A DNA stretch of 23,144 nucleotides from Bacteroidota bacterium. GTDB lineage: Bacteria > Bacteroidota > Ignavibacteria > UBA10030 > UBA8401. This document shows, in pieces, positions 3,391-21,532 of this stretch. Both the position numbers and the translations under genes were made by a program. Under the pieces are notes generated by a model, which made no database searches, was not told where the DNA came from, and saw only the letters and a list, made by a program, of their open reading frames with translations. Location: positions 1 to 23,144 of the forward strand of contig JBMOHT010000049.1 in assembly GCA_049317705.1 (NCBI GenBank), in the 5' to 3' direction. Within the stretch, counting starts at the first letter, position 1. Each line of letters starts with the position of its first letter.

Positions 3391-4770
3391 TCAGGATCCT
3401 TCTTTCATTCCATTCAATATCTTGTGAAGCCCCTGTCTTGTGATACCGGCCTTCTCCGCGGCTTTCGATATATTTCCGTTCGTTGATTTCAACAGAGTGC
3501 CGAAATACCGTTTCTTGAATTTCATATCCGCCTGCTTGTATGTGAGGACACCGTTGTTTCCGTTCTCATCTTCGGCCGCTTCGTGCACGCGGTCGAAGAA
3601 CGAACTGTTGCGGAGCGGGAACAGATCTTTCGTCAGTGTATTGTCGCGGGTATACGCCATAGCATTCTTCACGGCATTCTCCAGTTCACGGACATTCCCG
3701 GGCCAGGAATATTCTTCGAGATATTCCTGCACATCCTTCGGGATGACCATCTCGGCGTTGATCGGTGAACCGTACAGTTTCAGAAAATACTTCACGAGCG
3801 GAATAATGTCATTCTTCCTGGTACGCAGCGGAGGGACATTGAGCATGACACCGGAGATGCGGTAATAGAAATCCTCGCGCATTCTCCCCTTCACCACGAC
3901 ATCCTTCAAATCCTCGTTGGTCGCCATGATTATTCGAAGATCCACTTTGATCTCGGGCTTGCGGGGATCGTAACCGACACGGGAGAAACTTTTATACTGC
4001 ATAAAATGAAGCAGTTTCAGTTGAACTGATTCGGTGAGCGAGGATACCTCGGGGATATATATGGTCCCCCCATTCGCCGCTTCGAATTTACCTATTTTCA
4101 TCGTTTCCGCACCGGAATATGCCCCTTTTTCATGACCGAACAATTCTGATTCGATCAATTGTTCATTGAGACTTCGCAGGGAAATGGGAATGAACGGTTT
4201 GTCGGGATTCTGACTGCGACGGTGGATCTCGAACGCAATCCTATCCTTACCGACACCGGTCTCACCATTGATGAGCACATCGAACGGAACCCCGGCGAGG
4301 CGGTCGATCTCCTGTTGAATGGACTGCATCTTTTCGGAAACAACGATGAAGGTGTTCTGTTTGTCGTTGAATGTATCCTGCAGGAGATTCACATGCAGTT
4401 CAAGATCGCGGTGTTCCAGCGCTTTGTTGATCTTTGTGGCAAGATATTCCACGGTGAAATCTTTCTGGACAAAATCGTATGCGCCGTATTTGATGGTCTC
4501 TACGACATTGTTCAGATCGCCGTAATCCGTAACGATGATGACCGGCACATATTTATCGATCTCTTTCTTGATCACTTTCAGCACTTCCAATCCGTTGATA
4601 TCAGGAAGATCCAGGTCGAGAAGAATGACATCGACATGATCGGTCCTGAGCACTTCCAGAGCGCGCTTTCCGTTGTGAGCTTTAACGATAGTGTATCGTC
4701 CTTCCAGGAGCGATTCGACATCGTTCGTAAATGAGATATTGTCGTCGACGAGCAGAAGTTTTTTCTTCAT
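3391..4770 (-). CDS. Sigma54-dependent transcriptional activator, NtrC family (receiver + AAA+ sigma54-interaction domain + Fis-type HTH)
   Basis: 459 aa. Receiver motifs are KLLLVDD and VILLDLDLPDING. Walker A is GETGVGKD. The sigma54-contact loop is ELFGHEKGAYSGA, a GAFTGA variant. Also present are RLNV and WPGNVRELEN, and a C-terminal HTH NISKAAEKAGITRQGLHKIL. The start overlaps the upstream stop (ATGA at 4767-4770). Confidence 0.92.
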   Translation of the reverse strand: MKKKLLLVDDNISFTNDVESLLEGRYTIVKAHNGKRALEVLRTDHVDVILLDLDLPDINGLEVLKVIKKEIDKYVPVIIVTDYGDLNNVVETIKYGAYDFVQKDFTVEYLATKINKALEHRDLELHVNLLQDTFNDKQNTFIVVSEKMQSIQQEIDRLAGVPFDVLINGETGVGKDRIAFEIHRRSQNPDKPFIPISLRSLNEQLIESELFGHEKGAYSGAETMKIGKFEAANGGTIYIPEVSSLTESVQLKLLHFMQYKSFSRVGYDPRKPEIKVDLRIIMATNEDLKDVVVKGRMREDFYYRISGVMLNVPPLRTRKNDIIPLVKYFLKLYGSPINAEMVIPKDVQEYLEEYSWPGNVRELENAVKNAMAYTRDNTLTKDLFPLRNSSFFDRVHEAAEDENGNNGVLTYKQADMKFKKRYFGTLLKSTNGNISKAAEKAGITRQGLHKILNGMKEGS

Positions 4771-7187: not shown

Positions 7188-10100
7188 GGCTGTAATAGTT
7201 GGTGCATCAGTTTGAGCAATGTATCGATCATGAATGGTTTTGTGATAAAGTTCTCCCGCGGAAGACCCAACTCATCCATCACTTTCACATTGGCATGGAT
7301 ACCGCTCATCATGATGATGTGCGGATTTTCGTTCATGGTACGGATCGCACGGACGGTCGATGGACCATCCATATGCGGCATCATCACATCGAGTATAACG
7401 ACCTTTATTTCCGACTTGTTCGAGGCATAAATGCCGAGCGCTTCCGCGCCATTCGATGCGGTAATGACCTTGTAGTGATAATCCTCCAGAGTCGCTTTGG
7501 AGATATTTCTGATCACTTCTTCGTCGTCCACCAACAGGATGGTCTCACCGTTTCCGCTCGGAAAATCTCCGCTCTTTTCGATGATACTGTTGATATTCGC
7601 GGAAGTTGTCGCCGGAAGGAATATCTGGAACGTGGTCCCCATGCCCACTTCGGATTCAAGGACGATGAATCCTTTATGCGCCTTAATGATGGCTGCGACA
7701 TTGAACAATCCGAGTCCGGTCCCTTTGCCGACCTCTTTTGTCGTGAAGAATGGATCGTAGATCTTTTTGATGATAGCGGAAGGGATACCGATACCAGAAT
7801 CTGCAACGGTGATGCGGCAGTACGGTCCGACCTTTGCGTCGATGTTGATGTGTGTCGACATCTCGTCGAGAATGACATTGTCCGCACGGATCTCCAGCCG
7901 GCCGCCAGCGGGCATCGCATCGCGGGCATTGACACAGAGATTCAGGAGCACCTGATGCATCTGTGTGGGATTGGCAAGGATGGGGAACAATTCACGCGAC
8001 GGGAAGAATTCGGCCCGAATCATCTTCGGGAATGTTTCGTTGATCAAGCGTTCCAATTCACGGATGATATGCTTCATCTGAACGACCATTGTATCCTGCT
8101 GATTCACGCGGGAGAATCCGAGGATCTGTTTAATCAGGTCGGAACCGCGGAGGATATTCGACTTGAGCATCTTATTGATCTCACGGGATTTATCATCCAT
8201 CAGGACGCGGTCAAAATACGAGAGTGATATGAGGATAGGACCGAGGATATTATTCATATCATGCGCAATACCGCTGGCAAGAGTACCGATACTTTCCAAC
8301 CGCTGGCTGTGCGATGCCTGGTCCTGCATCTGACGGCTCTTGGTGATATCCGAAATGACATAGAGGACGGATCGTGTTCCGGTGGAATCATCCGTAATAA
8401 TTGTTGCGCGGATATGGACCCAGATGTTCCCTTTGGACTTGGTCTTATGTTCCTGGTCCTGTTCCCAATTCATCCCTGACTTTATCATCTCGAAAGATTC
8501 GTTCTGACCGGAAGAAACATTAAAGAAGAAACCGCTGAGTGCTTTAGAATTCAGTTCGTCCTTCGAATATCCGTACAACTGTTCGACACTGTCGTTGGTG
8601 TATACGATCGATTCGTCAAGATCCGTCACAACGATGGCGTCACTTGCCTGATCGAGATAGAAGGACATATCTTTGATGCGTCCTTCCGCAAGCGTCAGAC
8701 GCTGCGTCGTTAACTGTTCACGTTCCTTGAGCAGCTGTTCTGCTTGTTTCTGTGTTGTGATATCCTCAAAGATATAGAAGCGTCCGAAGTATTGGCCGTG
8801 CTCTCCGACGATCTGCGTGGAGAAACGACGGATGGTGCTGTTCGATTTGAACTGTATCTCATCCTCTAAGACCGCAGTATTTGAGGGATCTTGAAGAGGG
8901 ACACACGTTTCGGCGAACGCCGCCGGATCCTCAAGAATAGGTATACAATACGGGATGATGTCATTATTCTTCATCGCACCTGTCCGCATCTTCTCTTCCA
9001 GATGAGTTATTCCCCAGAGTTCACAGAACCGGCGGTTGAAATAGAGGATACGATCGTCCCGGTTGTCCACGACAAGAAATCCGAGAGGCGAAGAAGTTGC
9101 CATCATTTGCAGCAGTGATGCATTCCATTCCAGTGCCGCTTCATTCTTCCTTCGTTCCGTGATATCCTGTTTGATGGCGATAAAATTCTCGATAAAGCCC
9201 AAGGAGTTCTTGATGGGAGAGATGATATCATATTCGATATAGATCTCGCCGTTCTTCTTCCGGTTGATCACTTCGCCCTGCCATACAATCCCTTCGGTGA
9301 TGGTCTTCCACATATCACTATAGAGTTCCGGCGACGTCTGACCGGATTTCATCACGCGCATGTTCTTTCCGAGGAGTTCCCCCTGTGAATATCCTGTGAC
9401 CTCGCTGAAGTGCGGATTGACGTACTGAATGGTGCCGTGTTGGTCCGTAATGACGATCATCGCAAAACTTTGTTCAATGGCAACGGACATTTTTTTGATC
9501 TGCTGTTCCGATTCGACGCGCTGAGTGATATCGGACAGCGTTCCGATCATCCGAAGCGGCATTCCTTTCGCATTACGTTCAACGATCTTTCCTCGGTCAA
9601 GCGTCCAAATGATCGAACTATCTTTCCGGATCATCCGGTGTTCGGACGCATAGGATTCGGTCTCGCCGTTAATATGTCTTTCTACTTTCTTCAAGGTCTC
9701 ATCCACATCCAGCGGATGGACACGATCCTTCCATTCGCTGAGATTGTCGCTCACCTCATCATTCTCAATTCCAATCATCTCCTTCCATCGCTGCGACAGG
9801 AAGAGAGTGCTCTCTTCAATATTCCAGTCATACATTCCATCGTTGCTCGCCTCGAATGCAAACTTCAGCCGCTGCTCATTCTCGTGCAAAGCCAATTCGG
9901 CCCGTTTGCGGTCGGTAATATCCCTGATGATTGAGAGGGCTTCATTATTGGACAATGCGATGAGTCTGTCCTCGAAATACCGGAGGCCGTCTGCCATGGG
10001 AAGTGAATATTCGAACAGTTCCATGGATTTTGAAATGAATGAACGTTCCATGGAGGCAATGGCCTGATCTGAAATATGCGGCGGAAGGATGTCCTTGATA

Positions 10101-12781
10101 TTCTTCCCGAGAAACTGTTCCGGAGGGATATACAGATCGGACTTATTCGTGACACGACAGTCCAAGAAAATACCCGATCGGGTTATACGGAACATCAGAT
10201 CGGGCACGGCATCCACAATAGCCTTATTCTCCTCTTCACTCCGGCGCAGATCCTCTTCGCTACGAAGCCGCTCAGTGATGTCGCGGATCGTCACGATGAT
10301 ACCCTCGGGACCGTGATTGGTGTCGAACAGTGCCGAACAACGGATCTCGGACTGGAACGACTTTCCGTCTTTTTTCAACAATGCCGCTGATACATCGGTC
10401 AATGTCTTTTTTTCAAAGATATGATCGAACACCGCTTTCCCCGTCAACCGGTCATCCTCCGTGAACAGGTCCAGAGCACTCAATCCGAGCATCTCATCAT
10501 TGGAACCGTAACCGAACAGCTTCATACACTCGAAATTCACCAACGCGAGAGAGCCGGCTTTATCGAAGAATGCAATGGCATCCGGAGAGGATTCGATCAA
10601 CGCTCTGTTGCGTTCCTCGATCTGATGGAGGAGCTGTTCGGTCTTTTTTCGTTCCGTAATGTCGCGGGTAACGCCGATAATAACACTCTTATTATTCCAT
10701 GTTCCCAATGCGATACTGGTTTCCACATCGATGCGGTGACCGGATTTGGATATCAATGGGACGGGGCAATACTTCGTTTGTCCCGCGATCATCTCCCCCA
10801 CGATCCTCAATGCTTCCTCCCTCCGTTCGGGAACATGCAACTCGATAACATTCATCGTCCGGAGTTCTTCGATGGAAAATCCCAGCCGTTCCAGCACCAC
10901 TTTGTTCACCTCGAGAATCGTACCTTTTTCGTCCAGCACGAACATAAAATCGTTGATCGAATTGAACAACGCATTGACATTCCTCTGATTCTGGCGAAGG
11001 GATTCTTCGATGCGTTGAGAATAGATCGCTTTTCCGATCTCTTCCGCGATCGAATTCAGGATCCTTCGATCGTCGGGAGTGAACGGACGATACCGTTTCG
11101 TAGCGATATTGATCGAACCACCGACGGATTTGCCGACAAAGAACGGAATGATAGCGGCCGACGTGAATCCGAACTTTTTTCCTTTCGTCGTCTCGGAGTA
11201 TATCGGCTGCCCCTTGATAAGCACCGTTGTGTACGGTTCAGCGGTCAACGGAATTACTGAGACCTCCTTGATGAATTCTTCGGGAAGGTTGATGGATGTA
11301 TGAAGGACGCCGGAGTTCTTTTCGCGATCGATGAGATAGATACCTCCGCCGTCGAAACTGAACAGATTCAGTGTCAATTCAAGATAACGATGCAGCAGAT
11401 CGGCGGACGACGACGTATGTTCGAGTGTATCGTTAAGGACGGTGGCAAATTCGATCCTTTCGGAAAGAAGACGGTATTTATATTCGATCTCTTTCGGTTC
11501 TGAAATGTCCGAGCAGGAACCGATGAATCCGAAAAATTCGTTCGTCGGAGAATACTTCGGAACAGCATTGATCTGGATCCACCGATAGGAGCCGTCATAC
11601 CTCAGCAGGCGAATCTGAATGTTCATTGGTCTTCGCGCTTCAAAGCAGGAATGAAATACCTGTTCGAAATTCTCTTTGTCGCCCAATTGAATGGAACCGA
11701 ACCATCCATCCTCACATTCCTGTGCGAACGAATGTCCGGTAAAATCGAGCCAGCTCTTATTGAAGAAGTTAAATTTCTGCGACTGATCGGTCATCCACAT
11801 CATCACCGGAACACTCTCAACCACACTATGAAAAAGGTTCTCGCTCTCCAGTAATTGTTTATCCTGTCTGAACCGTTCAATGGCATTGATGATCGAGTCA
11901 CCAAGAAGACGGAGCAGGTCCATCGTTTCGTCAATAAATGTCCGTTCTTCCTTTACAGCATCGAAACCGATAAAGCCGACAAGACGCGATGCATAGATGA
12001 GCGGAACCACTGCGAGTGATTTGATCATCTGAGGTTCGAGGATCTCCCTCTCCGCCACCGCTTCCGGCGGAAGTTCGTCGAGTGACCTCAGCGCAATATT
12101 CTCGAACCGTTTCATCTTCCCCATCCACCACGGCAAGATCTCCGCGGGAATGCCCTGCAGATTTTCGATCTGCGGATCTATGCCATGTGCACACCATTCA
12201 TGAGTATTGTCCATGACCGTATCGTTCATGCTCAGCATAAAAATATATGAACGGTCGACATGCATCAGATCACCAATTTCGGCGAGACCAGAATTGATCT
12301 GACGGTTCAGGTCCTGAGATGATACAAGGATGAAATCTTTCGAAATACGCGAGATGGTCGCATGCAGAGTTTTATGGAACGAGACCAGCTGTTTGGCTCG
12401 GGCGTCCTCCGTGATATCCAGGAAGATCACCATGATATGATTCGTATTCCTGTCGGGAATAGTACGGATCTCGAAGATGCAGGGGTGCGTATCGACGGGG
12501 ATCTCTACGATCAGTTTATCCGATGAATCCTTTCTGTCTGTATTGACGATCAGATCTTTGATCTTTGAAGCAAGTGTAGCGGGGAAGATCTTATCCAGCG
12601 GGAGCCCGATGAGTTGTTGAAGTTGTGACTGAACGGTATCATTTTTTCCTGTAAAATACGTCCTGAGATATCCTTGAACGTCGAACCACGTTATGATCTC
12701 GGATATCCGTTGAAATTCTTTGAAAAAAATATATTCTACCGATGAGATAGACTTTCGTGCTTTAAAAATACTGTCCGCCAT
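7184..12781 (-). CDS. Giant soluble hybrid sensor histidine kinase (9 PAS/PAC + 2 GAF-like + HisKA + HATPase_c + receiver)
   Basis: 1865 aa with no TM. Nine PAC-end motifs are present: FLDITEDAR, CSDISEPKE, TRDITERKK, IRDITERLR, IRDITDRKR, LSDITQRVE, KQDITERRK, FEDITTQKQ, ISDITKSRQ. The H-box is SGIAHDMNNIL (His about aa 1507). N/G boxes are LNLCVNARDA, DSGIGI and GTGLGL (kinase core about nt 7613-8317). The C-terminal receiver has ILLVDDEE, VILDVMMPHMDG and ITKPF (about nt 7187-7546). Confidence 0.9.
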   Translation of the reverse strand: MADSIFKARKSISSVEYIFFKEFQRISEIITWFDVQGYLRTYFTGKNDTVQSQLQQLIGLPLDKIFPATLASKIKDLIVNTDRKDSSDKLIVEIPVDTHPCIFEIRTIPDRNTNHIMVIFLDITEDARAKQLVSFHKTLHATISRISKDFILVSSQDLNRQINSGLAEIGDLMHVDRSYIFMLSMNDTVMDNTHEWCAHGIDPQIENLQGIPAEILPWWMGKMKRFENIALRSLDELPPEAVAEREILEPQMIKSLAVVPLIYASRLVGFIGFDAVKEERTFIDETMDLLRLLGDSIINAIERFRQDKQLLESENLFHSVVESVPVMMWMTDQSQKFNFFNKSWLDFTGHSFAQECEDGWFGSIQLGDKENFEQVFHSCFEARRPMNIQIRLLRYDGSYRWIQINAVPKYSPTNEFFGFIGSCSDISEPKEIEYKYRLLSERIEFATVLNDTLEHTSSSADLLHRYLELTLNLFSFDGGGIYLIDREKNSGVLHTSINLPEEFIKEVSVIPLTAEPYTTVLIKGQPIYSETTKGKKFGFTSAAIIPFFVGKSVGGSINIATKRYRPFTPDDRRILNSIAEEIGKAIYSQRIEESLRQNQRNVNALFNSINDFMFVLDEKGTILEVNKVVLERLGFSIEELRTMNVIELHVPERREEALRIVGEMIAGQTKYCPVPLISKSGHRIDVETSIALGTWNNKSVIIGVTRDITERKKTEQLLHQIEERNRALIESSPDAIAFFDKAGSLALVNFECMKLFGYGSNDEMLGLSALDLFTEDDRLTGKAVFDHIFEKKTLTDVSAALLKKDGKSFQSEIRCSALFDTNHGPEGIIVTIRDITERLRSEEDLRRSEEENKAIVDAVPDLMFRITRSGIFLDCRVTNKSDLYIPPEQFLGKNIKDILPPHISDQAIASMERSFISKSMELFEYSLPMADGLRYFEDRLIALSNNEALSIIRDITDRKRAELALHENEQRLKFAFEASNDGMYDWNIEESTLFLSQRWKEMIGIENDEVSDNLSEWKDRVHPLDVDETLKKVERHINGETESYASEHRMIRKDSSIIWTLDRGKIVERNAKGMPLRMIGTLSDITQRVESEQQIKKMSVAIEQSFAMIVITDQHGTIQYVNPHFSEVTGYSQGELLGKNMRVMKSGQTSPELYSDMWKTITEGIVWQGEVINRKKNGEIYIEYDIISPIKNSLGFIENFIAIKQDITERRKNEAALEWNASLLQMMATSSPLGFLVVDNRDDRILYFNRRFCELWGITHLEEKMRTGAMKNNDIIPYCIPILEDPAAFAETCVPLQDPSNTAVLEDEIQFKSNSTIRRFSTQIVGEHGQYFGRFYIFEDITTQKQAEQLLKEREQLTTQRLTLAEGRIKDMSFYLDQASDAIVVTDLDESIVYTNDSVEQLYGYSKDELNSKALSGFFFNVSSGQNESFEMIKSGMNWEQDQEHKTKSKGNIWVHIRATIITDDSTGTRSVLYVISDITKSRQMQDQASHSQRLESIGTLASGIAHDMNNILGPILISLSYFDRVLMDDKSREINKMLKSNILRGSDLIKQILGFSRVNQQDTMVVQMKHIIRELERLINETFPKMIRAEFFPSRELFPILANPTQMHQVLLNLCVNARDAMPAGGRLEIRADNVILDEMSTHINIDAKVGPYCRITVADSGIGIPSAIIKKIYDPFFTTKEVGKGTGLGLFNVAAIIKAHKGFIVLESEVGMGTTFQIFLPATTSANINSIIEKSGDFPSGNGETILLVDDEEVIRNISKATLEDYHYKVITASNGAEALGIYASNKSEIKVVILDVMMPHMDGPSTVRAIRTMNENPHIIMMSGIHANVKVMDELGLPRENFITKPFMIDTLLKLMHQLLQP

Positions 12782-12823
12782 ACCGTCCTTAAAGTAATCA
12801 ATGATCTATTCGATCATAACTAC

Positions 12824-12839
12824 CTCAATTTTTGAGCCA
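12824..12839 (-). promoter_or_regulatory. Weak sigma54-like element TGGCTC-N5-TTGAG upstream of the giant kinase operon
   Basis: The minus strand reads TGGCTCAAAAATTGAG. GG and TTG are at canonical spacing, but -12 is GA instead of GC. The site lies about 43 nt upstream of the ATG at 12781. Confidence 0.2.
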
Positions 12840-12890
12840 CAATTATTACGGTGGAAATTGTGAAAAAACGGTGTCACCGTGTCGCCAAAC

Positions 12891-12975
12891 ATTGTCATTT
12901 GTCCACACATGTTTACATAATGACAATTGGTGTATAGTGTTCATTCGGGATATGATTGTCCGTTTACAAGACAAT
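12891..12975. promoter_or_regulatory. Cluster of four ATTGTC/GACAAT hexamers forming two inverted repeats (regulator sites or GTCAT-family repeat units)
   Basis: attgtcatt (12891-12899) pairs with aatgacaat (12919-12927), a 9-bp perfect inverted repeat with a 19-nt spacer. attgtc (12955-12960) pairs with gacaat (12970-12975) with a 9-nt spacer. Both right arms are preceded by GTTTACA. Confidence 0.35.
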
Positions 12976-13037
12976 ACATCGGAGGAAGGGAGAGCAAATA
13001 CGAAGAGAGTGACTGACCAGTTCCGTTGACGACCGAT

Positions 13038-13439
13038 TCAGTGAACCGATATTCCTTCCGGCAGCAGAAGCAGTTCGTGTCGCAAAAAATCCATCAGCAT
13101 TGATTTATCGAAGTAGGTATCCGCACCGGCCTCAAGAGCGAAATCCGCATAAAGTGCTCCCTCATAGAATGACGAAACGGCGATCCTGCCGGTGTAGGAC
13201 TGTTGACGGAGCAGTTTCACTACATCGACCAGATGCATCCCCTCGATGGAGAAGTCGATGATCAGAAGTTCGGGTGAATGTTCGGTGCAATACTGCAGCA
13301 GTTTGTCCGCGCAATGCATCGGGATCCACAGTATGTCCGAATAGAGATCATTCAGGATAGGATCGATCCGTTCGAGGAACCATGAGTTTCCGTCCGCGAT
13401 CACGACTGAATGCCGGTGTGTGTTTTGTTGTGCGTACAT
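13038..13439 (-). CDS. Single-domain response regulator (receiver only), slightly divergent acidic pocket
   Basis: 133 aa. Motifs are VVIADGN (beta1), LLIIDFSIEGM (phospho-Asp position), IAVSS (beta4 Ser) and YFDKS (Lys). It begins 3 nt after the upstream stop. Confidence 0.7.
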   Translation of the reverse strand: MYAQQNTHRHSVVIADGNSWFLERIDPILNDLYSDILWIPMHCADKLLQYCTEHSPELLIIDFSIEGMHLVDVVKLLRQQSYTGRIAVSSFYEGALYADFALEAGADTYFDKSMLMDFLRHELLLLPEGISVH

Positions 13440-13442
13440 TTG

Positions 13443-14657
13443 TCACTCCATACGGTTATGTTTAACGGACCGAAGTTCTTCCGGTCTATCCTTTGAAAGA
13501 AGCGGAATGAGGATGGAGACTGTGGTTCCATTGTTCACACTTGAATCGAACGTAATGATCCCAGCGTGGACATCTACGATCAGTTTGATGAGAGATAATC
13601 CGAGCCCCATACCGTGCTGCTGCATCGATTTCTTGTTGAACTGCATAAACTGTCCGATCTCTTCCAACTGCGGCTGCGACATACCGCAACCGTTATCCTT
13701 CACCGTGATGCGCACGACCGGACCCTCGCATTTTACCTGAAGTGAGATGAGACTGTCTTCCGGAGAGAATTTCAGTGCATTGTCCACGACCTCACTGATA
13801 ACCTTCTCCAGGTATTCCGCGGAGATGCAGATATTGGAGTCAAGATCGATCGTGGTGGTAAGACAATGTTCCCGAACATATTTTCGTGCGGTATTCCGTG
13901 CGACACTCTCGATGAGCAAACCCGCATCGTACTGGAGTTTTTCCTTTGAGAATTTCGCAATGACATTCTGATGCGTGAGAAGATAAGTATAGATTGAGAT
14001 TTTTTCGAAGATGGCTTGAAGCTGGCTTGCCCCTTTCGAAATGGAAGAACCGATACGTTTCAGTTTATGCTGGTCGATATCCTTCGTCAGTTCCGTGAGA
14101 ATGAATGAGTTTCCCGAAATAATATGGAGCGGATTGTATAGTTCGGACGGGAACACCTTCTGGATACTCTCCCGGAGTGTATCCAGGCGCTCCTCGGCAT
14201 ATTTTTTGATACGCATCAGGCGCTCTTCCTGGGCATAGAACACATTAATGAGATCCTCCACGGCAAACGGCTTCTCAAGAATATCCTCCGCACCGAGCCA
14301 CATAGCCCTCCGCACAACGAACGTATCAACTAATCCGGACATGAGAATGAACGGCACCATGGAATATCTTTCGTTGACATGGATCTCCTGAAGCAGATCA
14401 AAACCGCTTTTTCCATCCATGTGGATATCGCAGAGGATCAGGTCGATCTTCTTGTCGTGATACTCATCGAGGGAATTCTTGCCGTTGCTCAGAAAGACGA
14501 CATATTTACGCTCGATGAGTTCCAACTCCAGCGACTTCAGCCAAAATTCGTCATCATCGATAATCAAAATATTATTGATCAATCTTGTCTCCGTAGAGAA
14601 TCGATGCTCCATCTGGACAGATGGTTCGTGCTTCAAGGGAAGAAATTGAGAGATCAT
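13443..14657 (-). CDS. Receiver-histidine-kinase hybrid with Ser at the canonical phospho-His position
   Basis: 404 aa. Receiver motifs are ILIIDDDE, LILCDIHMDGKSG and ILEKPF. The DHp motif is VFPSELYNPLHIISG, against the canonical (S/P)HELRTPL. The CA domain is intact: DNALKF, DNGCGM, FMQF, GMGLGL. The start overlaps the upstream stop (ATGA 14654-14657). Confidence 0.8.
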   Translation of the reverse strand: MISQFLPLKHEPSVQMEHRFSTETRLINNILIIDDDEFWLKSLELELIERKYVVFLSNGKNSLDEYHDKKIDLILCDIHMDGKSGFDLLQEIHVNERYSMVPFILMSGLVDTFVVRRAMWLGAEDILEKPFAVEDLINVFYAQEERLMRIKKYAEERLDTLRESIQKVFPSELYNPLHIISGNSFILTELTKDIDQHKLKRIGSSISKGASQLQAIFEKISIYTYLLTHQNVIAKFSKEKLQYDAGLLIESVARNTARKYVREHCLTTTIDLDSNICISAEYLEKVISEVVDNALKFSPEDSLISLQVKCEGPVVRITVKDNGCGMSQPQLEEIGQFMQFNKKSMQQHGMGLGLSLIKLIVDVHAGIITFDSSVNNGTTVSILIPLLSKDRPEELRSVKHNRME

Positions 14658-15127
14658 ATATACCTATCGATTGAATGGTGTTCCGGAGTGGTTGCATGAT
14701 ACATATTTACGTGATGCGTTTGCTCCGGGACAGTCTGTGTGCGTATGTATTCCATGAGTAGTTGAATCCGTTCGATCACATCGCTTTTGCGGAGGAACCG
14801 AACGTATGAAAAATGTTCCTGTGAATTGAGTGCCTCGTTGGGTTCATCGAGTAAAAGAATGAACTGCAGATCGGGATGGTATCTCCTCAATTCATAAGAC
14901 TTATTGAGGATCCTTTTGATGTTTTCCGAACCTTCCAGCATGATCATGGAGACTTTCTTCTGCTGGAGCCGGGGCATAGCCGCGATGAGCATATCCGCTG
15001 TCATCTCTTCCGCCGTCATGTTCACAAATTTAAAGAACCGTTCGAGCGGATAGTTCAGGTCGTTATCACTGCAGACAACAATTACATTATCCGTGAACTC
15101 ATTTTCTCTTAATATTTGATTTTTCAT
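14654..15127 (-). CDS. Hypothetical protein with receiver-like (CheY-fold) spacing but Glu at the phospho-acceptor position (pseudo-receiver)
   Basis: 157 aa. Motifs are VIVVCSDND (D21/D23), MIMLEGS (E65), FILLLDEP (about aa 93-94) and FLRKS (K114). The spacings of 42-44, 28-29 and 20 aa match the D-D-T-K spacing of receiver domains. Confidence 0.45.
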   Translation of the reverse strand: MKNQILRENEFTDNVIVVCSDNDLNYPLERFFKFVNMTAEEMTADMLIAAMPRLQQKKVSMIMLEGSENIKRILNKSYELRRYHPDLQFILLLDEPNEALNSQEHFSYVRFLRKSDVIERIQLLMEYIRTQTVPEQTHHVNMYHATTPEHHSIDRYI

Positions 15128-15326: not shown

Positions 15327-16187
15327 TCATTCCAATACGGCAGGTTCCATCTGCCGGCAGGTGATCCGTACATTCTCAAGGTCAATGTCCTGTTCCGCGA
15401 ATGATTCCAACGTTCCGCACAGAAACAGCATATCGCGGTCCTCTGCGATCCGTTCCAGCGCGTTGATATCACTCCGCATTGTTCCACTATTCAGTGAATG
15501 TTTCATGATGCAGAGCATCATATTCGAACTGCTTCTGGCGATCCATTGTTCAACTGCGGGCCACGAAGGCACCAGTCCGAGATTCACCACCAGATACCCG
15601 GAGGTATCGAACTTCGATTCAAGAATTCTGAGCTGATGTTCAAGGGTTTGTTCGAACGTGAAGATAACGACAACGGAATTCTTCGAACTTTGCCGGTCCA
15701 TACGGTCACAAAAAGAAGTGAACGCGTTGCTGATGGAATTCTTTGCAATTCTTCCTTGCGATGTGTCGATCGTGCCGAATCCCTCCATCCGATCCAATTT
15801 CTTCAGTACAGGTACGACTACTTCCATAAGGATATCCTTTTGAAGCAGATCCCCGTTGTAGAGAAGGATAAGGAGGTCCAAGATCTCCGGCTTGTTGCCG
15901 CGCAGCGCCGAAGCGAACAAGACCGAGCGGAATGTATTGAGTTCATTCCTTCGTACCATGTCCCGGATGACCGCAGAATCGCCGTTTGATATATGTTCAT
16001 TTCCCTTCGGTCCTGAACGGTGGCTCTGCTTCGCAGCAAATTCCACTATGTGGGAGTAGGAAAATTTGCGGTGATGCCCGACCGTGCAGATACAACTGAT
16101 CTTTCCGCTGTCGGACCAGCGTTTGACGGTGGACTTGCTCACATTCAGCATCTTTGCGACCTCTTCGGTCGTCATATTCTTCTGCAT
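15327..16187 (-). CDS. DNA-binding protein: excisionase/MerR-superfamily HTH + helical bundle + degenerate B12-binding-like Rossmann domain (CarH/LitR-like architecture)
   Basis: 286 aa. The N-terminal HTH is TTEEVAKMLNVSKSTVKRWSDSGKISCICTVGHHRKF. The middle segment VVVPVLKKLDRMEGFGTIDTSQGRIAKNSI follows the P.L..vG..W..G.i...EH.a pattern with W and EH replaced. The C-terminal VVVIFTFEQTLEHQLRILESKFDTSGYLVVNLGLVPSWPAVEQWI resembles a B12-binding domain, with the His kept but the DxHxxG context lost. Confidence 0.6.
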   Translation of the reverse strand: MQKNMTTEEVAKMLNVSKSTVKRWSDSGKISCICTVGHHRKFSYSHIVEFAAKQSHRSGPKGNEHISNGDSAVIRDMVRRNELNTFRSVLFASALRGNKPEILDLLILLYNGDLLQKDILMEVVVPVLKKLDRMEGFGTIDTSQGRIAKNSISNAFTSFCDRMDRQSSKNSVVVIFTFEQTLEHQLRILESKFDTSGYLVVNLGLVPSWPAVEQWIARSSSNMMLCIMKHSLNSGTMRSDINALERIAEDRDMLFLCGTLESFAEQDIDLENVRITCRQMEPAVLE

Positions 16188-16234
16188 AATTATTTCATTC
16201 TTTCGTGGCCGAGTGAGGCGATCAGTTTCTGTGA

Positions 16235-18022
16235 TTAGTCATTCAGTTCCGACACTGCTGCCGATCTTCCTGCCGGGTCAGCGGCTCCCCCCTCAAGAAC
16301 TGCACGACCGCCATTCCGAAGATCCTCGCGGATATGACGAGTAAACTTGCGGCGGACCGATTGTTCTTCCGTTGCAGATACCTGGGGAAGTGAGTTGATG
16401 GTATCCTGAAGGAGGCTTCGTGATCGTGTCGGCACAGCATCAAGGAATTTCATGCGGATATTCTCCGGAGCATTCTTGAGTGCAACGGCAACCTCTTCGG
16501 CCGAATGCACACGAATGATCTTACGGATGATACTGTCATCAACAGTGCCAAGATCTTCAAAAGAGACACGATGGGAGGAAAGATGACGGTATAGATCCAG
16601 ATCAAGGGTCTTGATTGTATTGCTGATGGCTGCCTCTGCATCCTCATCGATATTATCGAGGATGTCCATCAGAAGGTCTGTTCCCTGCACCTGAACATTT
16701 TGAATGGTGGGGATATTCGACGCTTTTTCCGCAAGGGTCCGGGCAACAGCAACGAACGTATCGATCGACAGCCGGTGAAGCGCGGACAATTGCATTGCGA
16801 CGTCTGCACGGGACCTCTCCGGAAGGCTCCGCAGGATCTCTGCTGAAAGGGCCGGGTCCAACTGCGAAAGCACCATAGCGGTGATCCCGGGTGATTCATC
16901 CTTTACCAACAGAAAGAGCTGCTGCTTCGACAATTTTTTCAGATACGCAAACGGGGATTGTTCCTCTTCCGCCGTAATGGCATACTGTCTGATCTGTATC
17001 TGGTTACTGAAATATGTGAATGCTTCGTCAATCACATCCTGTGAACTGAGCGAATGATCGCTGCTCATCTTTGACAGCTGAGAGTATTCGTTCTTCGAGA
17101 CATGCTCCCGTATCACCGAGAGAAGACCGAGTCCTAATTGCGAAAGGACCGGCTGCAGTCTCTGTCGATCTTCAGGGACCGCAAGCATCTGTCTGACTGC
17201 CCCGGCGGCCGCTTCCGGCCTTCCGACCGCTGCTGAGATGATGGAATGTTTGAGACGTTCATCATCCTTAACGGAACTGACCGGACGCACAGATTCAGGA
17301 AGGATATTCACAACTTTATTCTCCAGTTCTTTCACCGATGTTCTGGACCGTTCATCGGACTGCAACTGAACACGTTCGATCTCCTGCCGGAACATCTGGA
17401 GGTTCGATTTATTCTTCCTCATCAGCACAACGGCAGCGATCACAAGCATCATTACAATTGCGGAGAGGATCCCTTCGAACGGCGTCATTGCGCCGGTGAC
17501 TGCAGTCTGAACGACCGGTCTTATGACCGGCAGAGCAGTGTCCACTAACGGTTTTGCAATGACAACCGGAATCCCTTCTATTTCCGGGAACGCCATTTCG
17601 GTGATCCTCACTCTGTCGCCCCGGGAAGGATTGAGTTTACCGCTGACGATGGCAATATTGTCCAGTAATTGAATGAGTTCCCTTTTTTGCAAGGTCATTC
17701 TCTTGTCCACCAACAGTGCAACGGAAAGACGCTCGACCGAGATGACCTTCGATCCTGCGTTCTTTTCCGATTCGAAACCTTTCACGCCGGGAAGGGCAAA
17801 GTCCTTGGCATCCTTATAATCCACAGCGGTCTCTTCCTCGATCAGCATCGCGTCGCACGAGATGAGGAATTTCAGGTCGGGGTAATACCTTCTGATCTCA
17901 TTGCCGATCCTGCTTTCCACTTCGGACTCGATCAATTGTTTCTGTCTATTCACTTCGGCAGCACCTGCCATCAAGACGTTCAACACCAGCATCACAACAA
18001 TGATGAATTTAACAGTTCTCAT
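16235..18022 (-). CDS. Membrane-anchored FliG-like rotor protein: signal/TM1 + FliF/YscJ-type ring-building-motif-like periplasmic domain + TM2 + FliG N/M/C-like cytoplasmic domains (natural mini FliF-FliG fusion)
   Basis: 595 aa. aa 1-22 are hydrophobic. aa about 25-146 (nt 17585-17950) read IESEVESRIGNEIRR...LSVALLVDKRMTLQKRELIQLLDNIAIVSGKLNPSRGDRVRITE, an alpha-beta-beta-alpha-beta RBM-like pattern. TM2 is ILSAIVMMLVIAAVVLM (nt 17417-17473). aa about 255-570 are FliG-like: ESPGITAMVLSQLDPALSAEILRSLPERSRADVAMQLSAL (compare hPQtiAliLahL.pe.AaevL..Lpee.r.dv..Ria.l); RVSFEDLGTVDDSIIRKIIR (compare MFvFEDL..LDDrsiq.vLr); and ALKNAPENIRMKFLDAVPTRSRSLLQDTI (compare ALKGA...LREKFLRNMSQRAADILRDDL). 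Confidence 0.8.
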   Translation of the reverse strand: MRTVKFIIVVMLVLNVLMAGAAEVNRQKQLIESEVESRIGNEIRRYYPDLKFLISCDAMLIEEETAVDYKDAKDFALPGVKGFESEKNAGSKVISVERLSVALLVDKRMTLQKRELIQLLDNIAIVSGKLNPSRGDRVRITEMAFPEIEGIPVVIAKPLVDTALPVIRPVVQTAVTGAMTPFEGILSAIVMMLVIAAVVLMRKNKSNLQMFRQEIERVQLQSDERSRTSVKELENKVVNILPESVRPVSSVKDDERLKHSIISAAVGRPEAAAGAVRQMLAVPEDRQRLQPVLSQLGLGLLSVIREHVSKNEYSQLSKMSSDHSLSSQDVIDEAFTYFSNQIQIRQYAITAEEEQSPFAYLKKLSKQQLFLLVKDESPGITAMVLSQLDPALSAEILRSLPERSRADVAMQLSALHRLSIDTFVAVARTLAEKASNIPTIQNVQVQGTDLLMDILDNIDEDAEAAISNTIKTLDLDLYRHLSSHRVSFEDLGTVDDSIIRKIIRVHSAEEVAVALKNAPENIRMKFLDAVPTRSRSLLQDTINSLPQVSATEEQSVRRKFTRHIREDLRNGGRAVLEGGAADPAGRSAAVSELND

Positions 18023-18088
18023 ATGATTGCCATTATTTTGAATGAACTCTTTTCGTTTACGTACCGTAGAAAATCGCCGCCCGGAACA

Positions 18089-18775
18089 TCATGTTCCTGA
18101 ACTGCTGTAGTAATAGATGCGAATGACCACCCGACGATTATGAGCCCGTGCATTCTCCGTGTATGTTCGGGTAACAGAATCGGTCGCGGTCTGTGCAGGA
18201 CGTGTATCGGCAAATCCGACCGCCGACAATCTCTTCCTCTCAATGCCTGACGAATCCTGCAGGAACTTCAGCACCTGAAGCGACCGTGCAGCGGAAAGTT
18301 CCCAGTTGGTCTGGAATTCCTTACCGTTGATGAGCGGCTGATCGTCCGTATGCCCTTCGATCGACAGAAATGCATTGCGCGATTCGATGAATTTTTTCAG
18401 ATGCGGCGCGAGAACGATCATCGCATTGTATCCATCCTTCACAAGCGTCGCTTTCCCGATGGGGAACAAAAGATTGGACAGGAACCGCACTTCAACCCCG
18501 TCCCCCGTCATCACCACTGTCACTGCTTTGCGGAGGACCGTATCGGCACTTACCGTTTCGTTCAACTGATGAGCGATGGTTGAAAGATTCTCCTGACGGA
18601 TCTTTCCTGTGCCGGCGTCCGCCGCAAAGACATCCAATTTTGACTGATCCGGTTTGGAGATCGCCAACAGCAGTGTAAATGCGGCGATCATGGCCGTGAG
18701 AAGGTCGATATAACTTACCTTCCAATGCCCTGCATCTTCACGACTCCGTGAAGGACGTTCCCAAAGATAATTCAT
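18089..18775 (-). CDS. motB: MotB-family stator subunit (TM with conserved Asp + OmpA-like peptidoglycan-binding domain)
   Basis: 228 aa. The N-terminus HWKVSYIDLLTAMIAAFTLLLAI carries Asp24 (codon 18704-18706) at the position of the proton-binding Asp. The C-terminus is LSIEGHTDDQP...NWELSAARSLQVLKFL...LSAVGFADTRP...NRRVVIRI. The start overlaps the motA-like stop (ATGA 18772-18775). Confidence 0.85.
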   Translation of the reverse strand: MNYLWERPSRSREDAGHWKVSYIDLLTAMIAAFTLLLAISKPDQSKLDVFAADAGTGKIRQENLSTIAHQLNETVSADTVLRKAVTVVMTGDGVEVRFLSNLLFPIGKATLVKDGYNAMIVLAPHLKKFIESRNAFLSIEGHTDDQPLINGKEFQTNWELSAARSLQVLKFLQDSSGIERKRLSAVGFADTRPAQTATDSVTRTYTENARAHNRRVVIRIYYYSSSGT

Positions 18776-19623
18776 TGACGCTGCCGAGGGTCACCAGGGA
18801 CTTTCATCTTCATGGTGGTCATCGTCCGATGTGAAGGGACATAGTTCCGGAGTTTTTCCACGACATACTGGGTCCGCTTCTTCTCGTGGATCATGACAAG
18901 TCCGTCGGTGATCATCCCCTTCAGGATGAGATTCTCTGTGTTGATGGTATTGATCTTCTCAGCAATGGGCTGGAAGATGAAATTCGAGTACAGGAGTCCA
19001 TAGAGCGTGGTGGTAAATGCAATGGACATGGAATTGATGATTCCGTTGAAACCTGAAGCGGCATCGATCTTCTGTGAGAACATCTGGATGAGACCGACGG
19101 TCGTTCCCAGCATCCCGTATCCGGGCGAGAAATTCGCGGCGGTCCTCCACAGATCGTCATCGATCTGTTCGCGGTGCATCTCCGTTCTCATGCGCAGTTC
19201 GAGCATTTCCTTCACATCCTCGATCTTATACCCATTCACGAGCATCAGAAGTCCGTCCCGCAGGAACGGGAATGATATCCCGTTCGCATATTCCTCCAGC
19301 GTTTCAATATCGCCGGACTGTGTATATTCCGAAACCGTCTGAAAAACATTGATAAAATATGGATAATCGATCTTGTTACGGATGAATACCTGGTAGAGAG
19401 CCGCATGAGAGCGCGAGAATTCACGGAAGTTGTGGCTGATCAATATGGAAGCAAGAACGCCCAATGACACAAAGATGAATCCCGGAACGTGGATATACCG
19501 GCCTACCGTATCCGAGAAATACATTTCCTGGAATGATTTTACAGCACGTTCATCTGCACCGAAGACGAGCAGTACATATGCCGCGACCACGAACATGATG
19601 TAACCAAGAAATGTTGAATTCAT
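18772..19623 (-). CDS. motA: MotA/PomA-family stator subunit (4-TM architecture with large TM2-TM3 cytoplasmic loop)
   Basis: 283 aa. The loop is ISFPFLRDGLLMLVNGYKIEDVKEMLE. The core is FSPGYGMLGTTVGLIQMF...MSIAFTTTLYGLLYSNFIFQPIAEKI...ILKGMITDGLVMI. This matches the MotA/PomA consensus (PafGmiGTviGLI...AlltTlYGvllAN.i.lPia.Kl). A roughly 100-aa loop between TM2 and TM3 distinguishes it from 3-TM TolQ/ExbB. Confidence 0.85.
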   Translation of the reverse strand: MNSTFLGYIMFVVAAYVLLVFGADERAVKSFQEMYFSDTVGRYIHVPGFIFVSLGVLASILISHNFREFSRSHAALYQVFIRNKIDYPYFINVFQTVSEYTQSGDIETLEEYANGISFPFLRDGLLMLVNGYKIEDVKEMLELRMRTEMHREQIDDDLWRTAANFSPGYGMLGTTVGLIQMFSQKIDAASGFNGIINSMSIAFTTTLYGLLYSNFIFQPIAEKINTINTENLILKGMITDGLVMIHEKKRTQYVVEKLRNYVPSHRTMTTMKMKVPGDPRQRQ

Positions 19624-19637
19624 ACTTCGTCCTTCAT

Positions 19638-20345
19638 TCAGTACATTCTCATCAGCAACGCGCGAATATTATCGAGCGTCGGATCGAGTTCAAGGGCCTT
19701 TTCCCAGGAGAGTTTCGCTTCGGCAGTCTTGTGGAGAAGAAACAGGATGGATCCTCGTACGGAATGGAACAACGAGATATTCGGTGCGATGGCGATACTT
19801 TGATCGATCTCCTGCAACGCTTCGGTATATCGTTTCACCGAAAAATACTTCTGCGCGGTATTCATGTGGACCATTGCCTTGTTGTATTTGGCGTCATCGG
19901 CGGTATATTGATTCACTGTTTGAGCACCTGCTGCTGCAGACGTATCACGGCGTTCGCGGGACTTTGCGTTCAGTGTTCGCGTTGCGATCCCAGTCACTTC
20001 TTGTTCCATCATAACATCCTTTTCTGGATCGGGTTTGAAAACCGGTCCGAATTTTCCCGAGTACGTCAGATCGAAATCGATATTCCGGTCGTTCAGGTCC
20101 AACAGAAGATCGATCGTAATCACCGGTGAACGGAGTTTCACTTCGGTCAGCGGTGACGGTGATTCCATTGTGTCCCGTAGGGACGGGACCGATCTCCCCT
20201 CTTTATCGTTTGCGATTGTATCAGGAGGACAAACAGAATCATACGTCCCCAGGGATCCCTCCCACCGGGTTCCCGAATAGAGCGGGGTGATTCCGGTGAC
20301 CAGGAAGAACAACACGAATAGATGATATCGGAATAGTATGATCAT
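19638..20345 (-). CDS. Secreted/periplasmic protein with C-terminal TPR repeats
   Basis: 235 aa. The N-terminus is a hydrophobic signal-like segment MIILFRYHLFVLFFLVTGITPLYSG. The C-terminus is YNKAMVHMNTAQKYFSVKRYTEALQEIDQSIAIAPN...AKLSWEKALELDPTLDN, about 2-3 TPRs. The start overlaps the upstream stop (ATGA 20342-20345). Confidence 0.6.
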   Translation of the reverse strand: MIILFRYHLFVLFFLVTGITPLYSGTRWEGSLGTYDSVCPPDTIANDKEGRSVPSLRDTMESPSPLTEVKLRSPVITIDLLLDLNDRNIDFDLTYSGKFGPVFKPDPEKDVMMEQEVTGIATRTLNAKSRERRDTSAAAGAQTVNQYTADDAKYNKAMVHMNTAQKYFSVKRYTEALQEIDQSIAIAPNISLFHSVRGSILFLLHKTAEAKLSWEKALELDPTLDNIRALLMRMY

Positions 20346-21532
20346 AGATAAAAGAACAGATGACCGCCGAACATCGCACCTGCGGGGTATGATTTCCCCA
20401 TTCTGATTCCGTCTTCGATCCAGAATGAATCCAATCCAAGCCCGACGATCCTGCTCAGCCGGATATTCATGCCGCCATGGTACACCGGATAGAACTGAAG
20501 CATATCAAACTGGAAATAGTATCCGGCGGCGATGTTGACCGTGATGAGTCTGCTGCCGATCTTTTCAGATTGGAGCAGTTCAAAACCAACGCCGGGTGTA
20601 CAAACAATGCCGGGGGAAGAACATCTGGGATTATATAACAGCCGTGCATCGACAAAGACATTCATCGGATCGATGATCGTGGCGACGTCGTTGAATCGAT
20701 ATCCTGTTGCTACGAACGAGTAGTGTTTGTCCGAGACATCGATGCCGCCGCTGCGGATCTTTCCTGAAAGGAACGAGAAGGTGACACCGTTCATGTCGTA
20801 TCCCGTTTTTTTCTTCAGGGAGAACAGCTCTTCCATCTTGTCCTGTTCCGTGGGCACGTATACATCGAACACGGAACGGACATATTCACGGTTCCAGATC
20901 ATGACATTGTTCAGATCATTGAGGATCAAAAATACCATGACTTGCTGTTCGGTGATAAGGATCTCGGGCGAAAGGACAGCCTGGATGTTGCGGCGTACCG
21001 CGTATTGCCGCAACTGTTCTTCCGAATAGACATTCTTCACCTGAAGTGTTGAATCATCCGCTTTAATATAGAGAGGATGAAGGTCATGACCGGAGAAGAC
21101 CGTCACCCGTTTCGACCGGGCAAGGCTTCCTTTCAGTTTGTTCTCGAAGAACGAGAGCAGGAACTGCTGATCGCTGACACTCAGATCGGTCTTCAGCAGC
21201 CATTTCAATCGCATCTTATAGATGACGAGACTGGAAATCCCCATCGGCAATTCCGCTGAGGATTCAATGATCTGCGAACTGATGGAGTCTATCACGTTCA
21301 TGTACCGTTCAAGCATCTTCTGTGAATAGATCTTCTCAACTGCAGCGGGAGCGGGATCACGAGGTTTATCGCCGGCTGCGGCGCTCAAAGGAACGGTCCA
21401 CAGAATCAATACAAGCATAACAATGGAATCAAGAATTTTCAGCAGTGGTCGCAATCGGACAGCTCTCTTTCGGTTGTTCAGTGCATTATTATCAAAGACA
21501 GCATCAATGAACGTGCCACAGAAACAGATCAC
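20342..21532 (-). CDS. Hypothetical exported protein; the C-terminal half has amphipathic beta-strand periodicity (putative outer-membrane beta-barrel). Start uncertain
   Basis: The track start at 21532 is GTG. Alternatives are TTG at 21454 (giving MRPLLKILDSIVMLVLILWTVPLSAAAG, a clean signal peptide, preceded by GAAAGAGAG) or ATG at 21418. C-terminal strands are VTFSFLSG, YSFVATGYRF, LITVNIAAGYYFQF, GGMNIRLS, GLGLDSFWIE and GAMFGGHLFFYL. Confidence 0.5.
   Translation of the reverse strand: MICFCGTFIDAVFDNNALNNRKRAVRLRPLLKILDSIVMLVLILWTVPLSAAAGDKPRDPAPAAVEKIYSQKMLERYMNVIDSISSQIIESSAELPMGISSLVIYKMRLKWLLKTDLSVSDQQFLLSFFENKLKGSLARSKRVTVFSGHDLHPLYIKADDSTLQVKNVYSEEQLRQYAVRRNIQAVLSPEILITEQQVMVFLILNDLNNVMIWNREYVRSVFDVYVPTEQDKMEELFSLKKKTGYDMNGVTFSFLSGKIRSGGIDVSDKHYSFVATGYRFNDVATIIDPMNVFVDARLLYNPRCSSPGIVCTPGVGFELLQSEKIGSRLITVNIAAGYYFQFDMLQFYPVYHGGMNIRLSRIVGLGLDSFWIEDGIRMGKSYPAGAMFGGHLFFYL
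21503..21518 (-). promoter_or_regulatory. Candidate sigma54 promoter TGGCACG-N4-TTGAT for the motor-like operon
   Basis: The minus strand reads TGGCACGTTCATTGAT. The -24 heptamer is perfect and TTG is at correct spacing, but -12 is GA instead of GC. The site lies inside the GTG-extended ORF but 49 nt upstream of the alternative TTG start at 21454. Confidence 0.4.

Follow-up and report, generated by a model that had tools for sequence, protein, structure and literature searches.

A variant of the flagellar rotor–stator interface in a non-flagellar bacterial gene cassette

In the flagellar motor, ion flow is converted into torque at the electrostatic contact between rotor and stator. To our knowledge, mutagenesis in a handful of model species is the only way in which the redundancy of this contact has been studied. 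K264 and R297 of FliG make secondary contacts in Escherichia coli and Salmonella, and the stator protein PomA of Vibrio carries the charged residues R88, K89, E96, E97 and E99. In E. coli, MotA R90 pairs with FliG D288-D289 and MotA E98 with FliG R281 (summarized in PMC12505986). In a published structure, the torque helix touches adjacent MotA subunits through charged residues at its two ends (PMC11302681). Vibrio fischeri possesses a second MotAB pair, motA2B2, that swimming does not require and that is not part of the flagellar regulon (Brennan et al. 2013, PMC3948606). Rotor proteins without filaments may have another function according to a 2025 survey (PMC12199754).

Here we analyse a 23,144-nucleotide stretch of a Bacteroidota genome (contig JBMOHT010000049.1 of assembly GCA_049317705.1), referred to at its full length as the window. 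It contains a conserved five-gene cassette for an outer-membrane barrel protein, a tetratricopeptide repeat (TPR) protein, MotA, MotB and a fusion protein, in which a module resembling the third ring-building motif (RBM3) of FliF is joined through a transmembrane (TM) helix to FliG. Its MotA-like and FliG-like proteins constitute a variant of the flagellar rotor–stator interface within a non-flagellar cassette; no description of the cassette or of this interface was found in the papers searched. On balance, we consider it probable that the two proteins are a cognate, flagellum-independent rotor–stator pair with a cut-down and repolarized flagellar interface, from which the pair of the MotA Arg and FliG D289 has been dropped on both partners.

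Domains and interface residues of rotor and stator

The features that bear on the contact are listed below, with codons read from the translation and the torque helix delimited by the AlphaFold2 (AF2) model and the gap-free FliG alignment.

16235..18022, minus strand: FliF(RBM3)-TM-FliG fusion, 595 amino acids, rotor protein (Pfam FliG_M 2e-16, FliG_C 1.3e-18, YscJ_FliF_C 3.3e-4)
16391..16429, minus strand: torque helix, residues 532-544 (R533, R535, D540, T541)
16475-16477, minus strand: codon of K516 (FliG K264)
16424-16426, minus strand: codon of R533 (FliG R281)
16403-16405, minus strand: codon of D540 (FliG D288)
16400-16402, minus strand: codon of T541 (FliG D289)
16376-16378, minus strand: codon of S549 (FliG R297, lost)
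18089..18775, minus strand: MotB-like stator B subunit, 228 amino acids (Pfam MotB_plug 1.1e-7, OmpA 6.1e-13)
18772..19623, minus strand: MotA-like stator A subunit, 283 amino acids, short-loop PomA type (Pfam MotA_ExbB 3e-18)
19285..19335, minus strand: cytoplasmic contact loop of MotA, residues 97-113 (Q102 (=R90), S103, D105, E107, E110 (=E98), E111)
19321-19323, minus strand: codon of MotA T101
19318-19320, minus strand: codon of MotA Q102 (R90)
19294-19296, minus strand: codon of MotA E110 (E98)

The FliG middle and C-terminal domains of the fusion score 60.4 and 67.7 bits, both above the Pfam cut-offs, and are also recognized by phmmer (9.4e-22 to FliG of 1lkv) and Foldseek (2.8e-11 over 324 columns to the full-length FliG 3hjl). 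As the same genome holds canonical fliF-fliG, the 595-residue protein represents an extra, divergent FliG copy. Its AF2 model (predicted local distance difference test, pLDDT, 76) displays an alpha-beta-beta-alpha-beta domain (2-143), a long TM helix (181-232) and a helical domain (249-355), followed by FliG_M and FliG_C. The N-terminal domain matches RBM3/S-ring chains of FliF in Foldseek at 3e-3 to 1e-2 (7cg7_A 2.9e-3), hhalign aligns the fusion with E. coli FliF 224-434 at 64% probability with the collar insert missing, and the match to YscJ_FliF_C is weak (21.6 bits, under the 23.8 cut-off). FliF RBM1, RBM2 and the beta-collar are not present; the periplasmic part spans only ~150 residues and has a short disordered loop (68-90) at the position of the collar insert. 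In a comparison of the window with L109 and L005, the fusion evolves much faster than its neighbours (identity to the nearest relative, L109, 80% versus 98.9% for MotA, 97% for the outer-membrane barrel protein, 96% for the TPR protein and 93% for MotB), and inside it conservation is highest in FliG_M (93%) and lowest in the TM/linker (77%).

The MotA-like protein aligns with solved MotA/PomA chains at phmmer values of 5e-24 to 3e-19. It comprises the MotA_ExbB channel domain and the two prolines P167/P219, equivalent in the family alignment to E. coli MotA P173/P222 and invariant in 89/89 aligned MotA rows (86 cassette, 3 canonical). Its MotB-like partner has a plug, an OmpA-type domain of the peptidoglycan-binding kind and D24, which in the family alignment corresponds to the channel Asp D32 of E. 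coli MotB. These features are the retained signatures of a working stator.

Translation of 16235-18022(-) and 18772-19623(-) reproduced all residues and codons of the initial annotation, which had aligned both proteins by eye to E. coli sequences. We used the true fliG, motA and motB of E. coli K-12 as reference, which carry K264, R281, D288, D289, R297, R90 and E98. The register K516=K264, R533=R281, D540=D288, T541=D289 and S549=R297 is gap-free over 264-297 in MAFFT and phmmer alignments with the FliG proteins of E. coli, Thermotoga maritima and Aquifex aeolicus; the E. coli FliG string used in the initial annotation was right except for one letter (EQP, not EPP), which has no effect on the outcome. 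The loop of E. coli MotA contains additional segments, which make that protein a poor direct reference, and aligning the MotA loop by MAFFT to it alone was rejected as unreliable (10-residue gap over R90-E98). The MotA register was therefore taken from HMMER alignments with solved short-loop MotA/PomA chains, which are gapless, and from the larger family alignment, both of which place E110 at E98 and Q102 at R90. The one-residue indel assumed earlier for this loop is unnecessary: phmmer matches tqsgdietle to arregllsle of Clostridium sporogenes MotA with no gap. In some MAFFT runs a 3-residue deletion fell on the MotA Arg position instead, but either way loop 97-113 is devoid of a basic residue; in the window it contains five acidic residues and zero K/R/H, with a net charge of -5.

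Thus, the second of the two E. coli pairs is lost on both partners, Q102 and T541 being uncharged. MotA retains E110 but has Q102/S103 in place of the basic residue(s), and the fusion keeps three of the five FliG charges (K516, R533 and D540), with T541 and S549 uncharged.

On the basis of domains and folds, we propose that a MotA5B2-like unit, anchored to the peptidoglycan, would pass ions via the D24 channel, and that the fusion would probably oligomerize via its RBM3-like domain. The stator would most likely push the torque helix of a FliG domain that is tethered through the TM helix to the FliF-RBM3-like periplasmic ring module. The acidic loop (E110/E111 together with D105 and E107) would face and engage the basic torque helix (R533, R535, K516) in a direct residue contact, turning or pulling the ring that the fusion is predicted to form, and the work might reach the envelope by way of the periplasmic ring together with the TPR and outer-membrane barrel proteins.

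Alternatively, the FliG domain might not receive torque at all, but act as a static membrane scaffold or docking site that activates or parks the stator, with the output elsewhere and the charges serving binding only. The absence of FliM, FliN, rod and export genes from the cassette would suit such a role, as would the faster evolution of FliG_C than of MotA (84% versus 99% identity to the nearest relative). However, a fold resembling the ring-building RBM3 seems to be preserved, no cassette lacks a basic R281-equivalent, and engineered FliF-FliG fusions form rings (PMC10941966; PDB 8z4d); we regard a mere scaffold as very improbable.

Distribution of the two charge pairs across fifty cassettes

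The fusion was paired with a neighbouring MotA in 86 loci, which were reduced to 50 cassettes with less than 90% identity, and registers were checked against solved structures. The sequence collection leaned toward relatives of the first query sequences, and the paired set is without several subfamilies that have a non-acidic residue 289 (P0015, P0016, P0049); the contig of P0217 ends before motA. Residues at loop positions -8 and 0 of MotA (R90 and E98) and at positions 281/288/289 of FliG are given below, 'SG' denoting a subclade with S/G at FliG 288/289.

Canonical: MotA R / E; FliG R / acid / acid
Window's clade: MotA Q or N (S in one) / E; FliG R or K / D or E / T, Q, H, R or K
'SG' clade and L062: MotA Q or N / D or E; FliG R / S, G or A / G, S, A or I
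Balneolaceae type A: MotA K or R / S (also T, G, N or D); FliG R / S / E
Balneolaceae type B: MotA mostly K or R / S, A, T, N or K; FliG R / I, L, M or S / E
Gammaproteobacterial clade: MotA R / E, I, V or R; FliG K or R / varied / E or D

The basic R90-equivalent and the acidic D289-equivalent are both kept in 28 of the 50 cassettes and both lost in 18; four have lost the MotA base only, and none the FliG acid only. All 18 double-loss cassettes keep the acidic E98-equivalent. Pairing across homologous cassettes, on which the initial annotation had made its co-evolving stator–rotor pair depend, is largely seen for the losses at R90/D289 but not for E98/R281. E110 and R533 are indeed both kept in the window, as annotated; since the R281-equivalent is basic in 50/50 cassettes, including the 29 with a non-acidic E98-equivalent, its retention does not track the partner and the kept pair is of little value as evidence of coupling. 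What stands of the co-evolution claim is the cognate status of the two proteins and the paired R90/D289 losses; the retention of D540 is not explained by its simple reading.

The routes to the double loss differ. The window's clade has a 3-residue-shorter, all-acidic loop and T/Q/H/R/K at 289, whereas in the SG clade R is exchanged for Q in a full-length loop and 289 is G/S/A. The net loop charge of the window's clade is -4.1 as compared with +1 for canonical MotA, and that of the torque helix +0.9 as compared with -1.3. An acidic loop and a net basic helix fit a one-signed, repolarized contact in this clade. Complementarity of net charge over all clades was only weakly negative (r = -0.32, not phylogeny-corrected) and is not relied on.

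In a cassette tree built without the trait columns, the cassettes are monophyletic with respect to the canonical proteins. The window's clade is placed beside the gammaproteobacterial clade, though support is weak (83); the other half of the tree holds the SG clade and L062 together with the Balneolaceae types. At minimum, three changes are needed at FliG 289 and six for the MotA base. Forcing all 18 double-loss rows into one clade of the concatenated tree costs 31 log-likelihood units (P value of the approximately unbiased test, p-AU, 0.003). The double loss thus probably arose twice independently, and its recurrence in a second branch suggests, without proving, a co-evolved contact in which the one loss would compensate for the other rather than merely coincide with it.

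At the family level, the conservation of R533 does exceed chance: in the FliG part of the superfamily just three columns hold their charge sign at 95% or more, and R533 is among them. E110, K516 and D540 are charge-invariant inside the window's clade. The K264-equivalent is basic in 17/50 superfamily representatives, and the R297-equivalent is uncharged in 45/50 cassettes.

Several observations weigh against a coupled loss. The correlation rests on two to three events: independent pairs changed the same way in two instances, the opposite way in none and not at all in two (sign test p = 0.5), and with so few independent pairs this test cannot reach significance. A single clade is not rejected by MotA alone (p-AU 0.13) or FliG alone (0.054), the group for this test was named after the tree had been seen, and long branches meet at the window's clade. 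Pairwise, keeping three of five charges equals chance, P(3 or more of 5) = 0.31, with 40% of E. coli FliG charged residues keeping their sign in the fusion. In Balneolaceae type B the MotA base was lost twice with FliG unchanged (L045; L050/L052/L059 group), and L062 has a Lys one position later, like the flagellar MotA1 of the window genome. D540 is conserved in the window's clade without its Arg (Q102 in the window), and most members of this clade, though not the window, have R/H/K two or one positions after the lost Arg. Finally, R533 is invariant whatever occupies the E98 position and may therefore be kept for another reason.

Alternatively, the residues may have changed by drift on one or two occasions deep in the tree and been passed on by shared ancestry, with no functional coupling. 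The two to three independent changes at 289, the sign test, the single-gene tree tests, retention at chance and the four cassettes with a MotA-side change alone all speak for coincidence. It accounts less well for the lack, among 50 cassettes, of any that lost the FliG acid while keeping the MotA base, for the other pair being kept in 18/18 double-loss cassettes, for two groups reaching the same state by different substitutions or an indel, for the rejection of a single origin by the concatenated tree, and for the strong conservation of the residues within clades. We judge coincidence a rather unlikely account. That the Arg-Asp pair behaves as a coupled unit in the cassette family is partly supported, and rests on very few events.

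With respect to D540, the Arg, His or Lys just after the lost MotA Arg are possible partners for the conserved D/E540. In the window and its two nearest relatives the residue two positions after the lost Arg is Gly (MotA G104, 19312-19314), most other clade members have Arg/His there, and L024 has Lys one position after.

More tentatively, and with a good deal of doubt, the lineages may have split the two salt bridges between them. The window's clade and the SG clade would work on the E98-R281 type alone, and Balneolaceae types A and B on the R90-D289 type with an uncharged E98 position, so that either contact could suffice; the window's clade would have gone furthest, to full polarization. 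A fully polarized interface may suit a switchless one-way motor.

Occurrence of the cassette with and without flagella

Fourteen related Bacteroidota loci from metagenome-assembled genomes retain the motA-motB-fusion synteny. In the window's clade, 8/15 genomes have canonical FliG and FlhA and 7/15 have neither. Two relatives, G175 and G079, each scored ~100% complete, encode the fusion protein only. An exhaustive profile search yielded 84 representatives at E < 1e-30 and ~128 proteins of 540-800 amino acids, and named members from Thalassolituus, Marinicellulosiphila, Bermanella, Oleispira and Balneola are annotated merely as 'FliG C-terminal domain-containing protein'. The metagenome pattern scan was run with a 23-sequence subclade alignment, and in a sample of 400 Pseudomonadota genomes the cassette occurred in the seed genome only. 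The five genes recur in permuted order in Thalassolituus, Marinicellulosiphila, Balneolaceae and metagenome contigs, and wherever the contig allows, motA and motB lie within ~3 kb of the fusion gene (more than 100 loci, several phyla). Stator and rotor genes are thus obligatorily linked, and the cassette is independent of the flagellum. This linkage and the persistence without canonical FliG and FlhA support the MotA-like protein and the FliG fusion as a cognate rotor–stator pair. A second or lateral flagellar system was ruled out, as no other flagellar genes are nearby and the cassette occurs in FlhA-less genomes.

In the window genome itself, contig 4 carries canonical fliF-fliG, and two motAB pairs of the canonical kind are found on contig 104. 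Its canonical FliG keeps all five charges (K, R, E, E, R), MotA2 keeps R and E, and MotA1 keeps E, with the basic residue a K shifted by +1. It is conceivable that the cassette charges were altered mainly for insulation, so that the cassette stator does not engage the canonical FliG ring, nor the canonical stators the cassette rotor. The coexistence of both systems in this genome, the charges kept by canonical FliG, MotA1 and MotA2, and the cassette MotA loop devoid of basic residues agree with this idea. However, flagellated and non-flagellated members of the same subclade (L008 and L009 versus L006, L007 and L018) carry identical interface motifs. Insulation therefore cannot be the whole reason, and we deem it improbable as the main one.

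The remaining cassette genes and their surroundings in the window are as follows.

15327-21532, minus strand: tight gene run of the five-gene cassette and a helix-turn-helix protein
within 15327-21532, minus strand: helix-turn-helix protein
19638..20345, minus strand: TPR protein, 235 amino acids, conserved cassette member (Pfam TPR_2 2e-9; homologues in 94 fetched loci)
20342..21532, minus strand: outer-membrane protein, 396-amino-acid open reading frame, conserved cassette member (no Pfam match; homologues in 81 loci)

The 396-residue protein models as a periplasmic alpha/beta domain followed by a small C-terminal beta-barrel (AF2, pLDDT 79; eight long C-terminal strands). Foldseek matches the barrel to the OmpA TM domain (7.4e-6), OmpX, Ail and OmpW, and the N-terminal part to the LpoB C-domain and TolB; relatives terminate in the aromatic beta-signal (...F) typical of outer-membrane proteins. 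Its first ~22 residues (window 21400-21532) are nearly all below pLDDT 50 and are followed by a hydrophobic helix at 28-52, so translation probably starts further downstream than the GTG at 21532.

Gene order varies between clades: OMP-TPR-MotA-MotB-fusion in the window, OMP-TPR-fusion-MotA-MotB in the gammaproteobacterial clade and fusion-OMP-TPR-MotA-MotB in the SG clade and Balneolaceae type A (OMP, outer-membrane protein). Balneolaceae hold two paralogous cassette versions. In type B (L042-L061) MotB is much longer (~500-630 amino acids), and in L042 the upstream gene encodes a 995-residue TPR protein, with no match to the outer-membrane barrel protein. Two 2.3 Mb genomes of the Pseudomonadota sample contain frames of 883-884 amino acids whose matches to the fusion profile cover positions 62-598 or 113-598 (G429:C20:73897-75390; G583:C2:27260-29092); these may be natural full-length FliF-FliG fusions of another kind.

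Two-component signalling genes fill the remainder of the window, and a Pfam scan of its proteins revealed no flagellar genes other than those of the cassette. Genes for receiver-kinases and GAF/PAS hybrid kinases adjoin the cassette in the window (3391-15127), in L109 and L110, and in the distant L062 (6637-8972). Kinase genes beside near and distant cassettes hint at two-component control of the motor.

Comparison with described motors and envelope systems

A natural, minimal, flagellum-independent motor family provides comparative evidence on which rotor–stator contacts are indispensable. Within the 50 cassettes the R281-equivalent is never lost, and the FliG acid of the Arg-Asp pair is never lost alone. 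Should it be true that either contact suffices, nature has already run that experiment. A single-chain ring-plus-FliG protein with its own stator would also be a simpler system for structural work, and since the cassette occurs in cultured carriers (Thalassolituus hydrocarboniclasticus, Marinicellulosiphila megalodicopiae and Balneolaceae, several carrier genomes being complete), the predictions are testable.

With the interface of E. coli and Salmonella the cassette shares homologous FliG_M, FliG_C, MotA and a MotB with plug, Asp and OmpA domain, as well as the register of torque helix and loop. It keeps R281, D288, K264, E98, the channel Asp and the two MotA prolines. In contrast, the equivalents of R90, D289 and R297 are uncharged, the loop is uniformly acidic, and an extra Arg stands at the A283 position. 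The motor context also differs: the cassette FliG is fused to a mini-FliF and membrane-anchored, FliM and FliN are missing, and the system occurs without flagella.

Like ExbBD-TonB, TolQR-TolA, GldLM, AglRQS and ZorAB, in which a stator of the MotA/ExbB family powers an envelope process, the cassette is linked to outer-membrane partners. Its stator, however, is a flagellar MotAB proper, including the plug and an OmpA domain, and we know of none among these systems that uses a FliG domain as the stator partner.

Like PomA of the Vibrio PomA/PomB stator, the cassette MotA belongs to the short-loop, four-helix 'TGI4' type of PMC12505986. E110/E111 match E96/E97 in a register checked on solved PomA, whereas the equivalents of R88/K89 are Q/S. 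Vibrio fischeri motA2B2 is comparable at the level of an additional, non-swimming MotAB pair. The engineered Vibrio FliF-FliG fusions (PDB 8z4d/8z4g; PMC10941966) likewise join a ring-forming FliF part and FliG in one chain, and they assemble rings. The natural protein is shorter, with 595 amino acids as compared with ~900, and retains of FliF only the RBM3-like module, without RBM1, RBM2 and the beta-collar.

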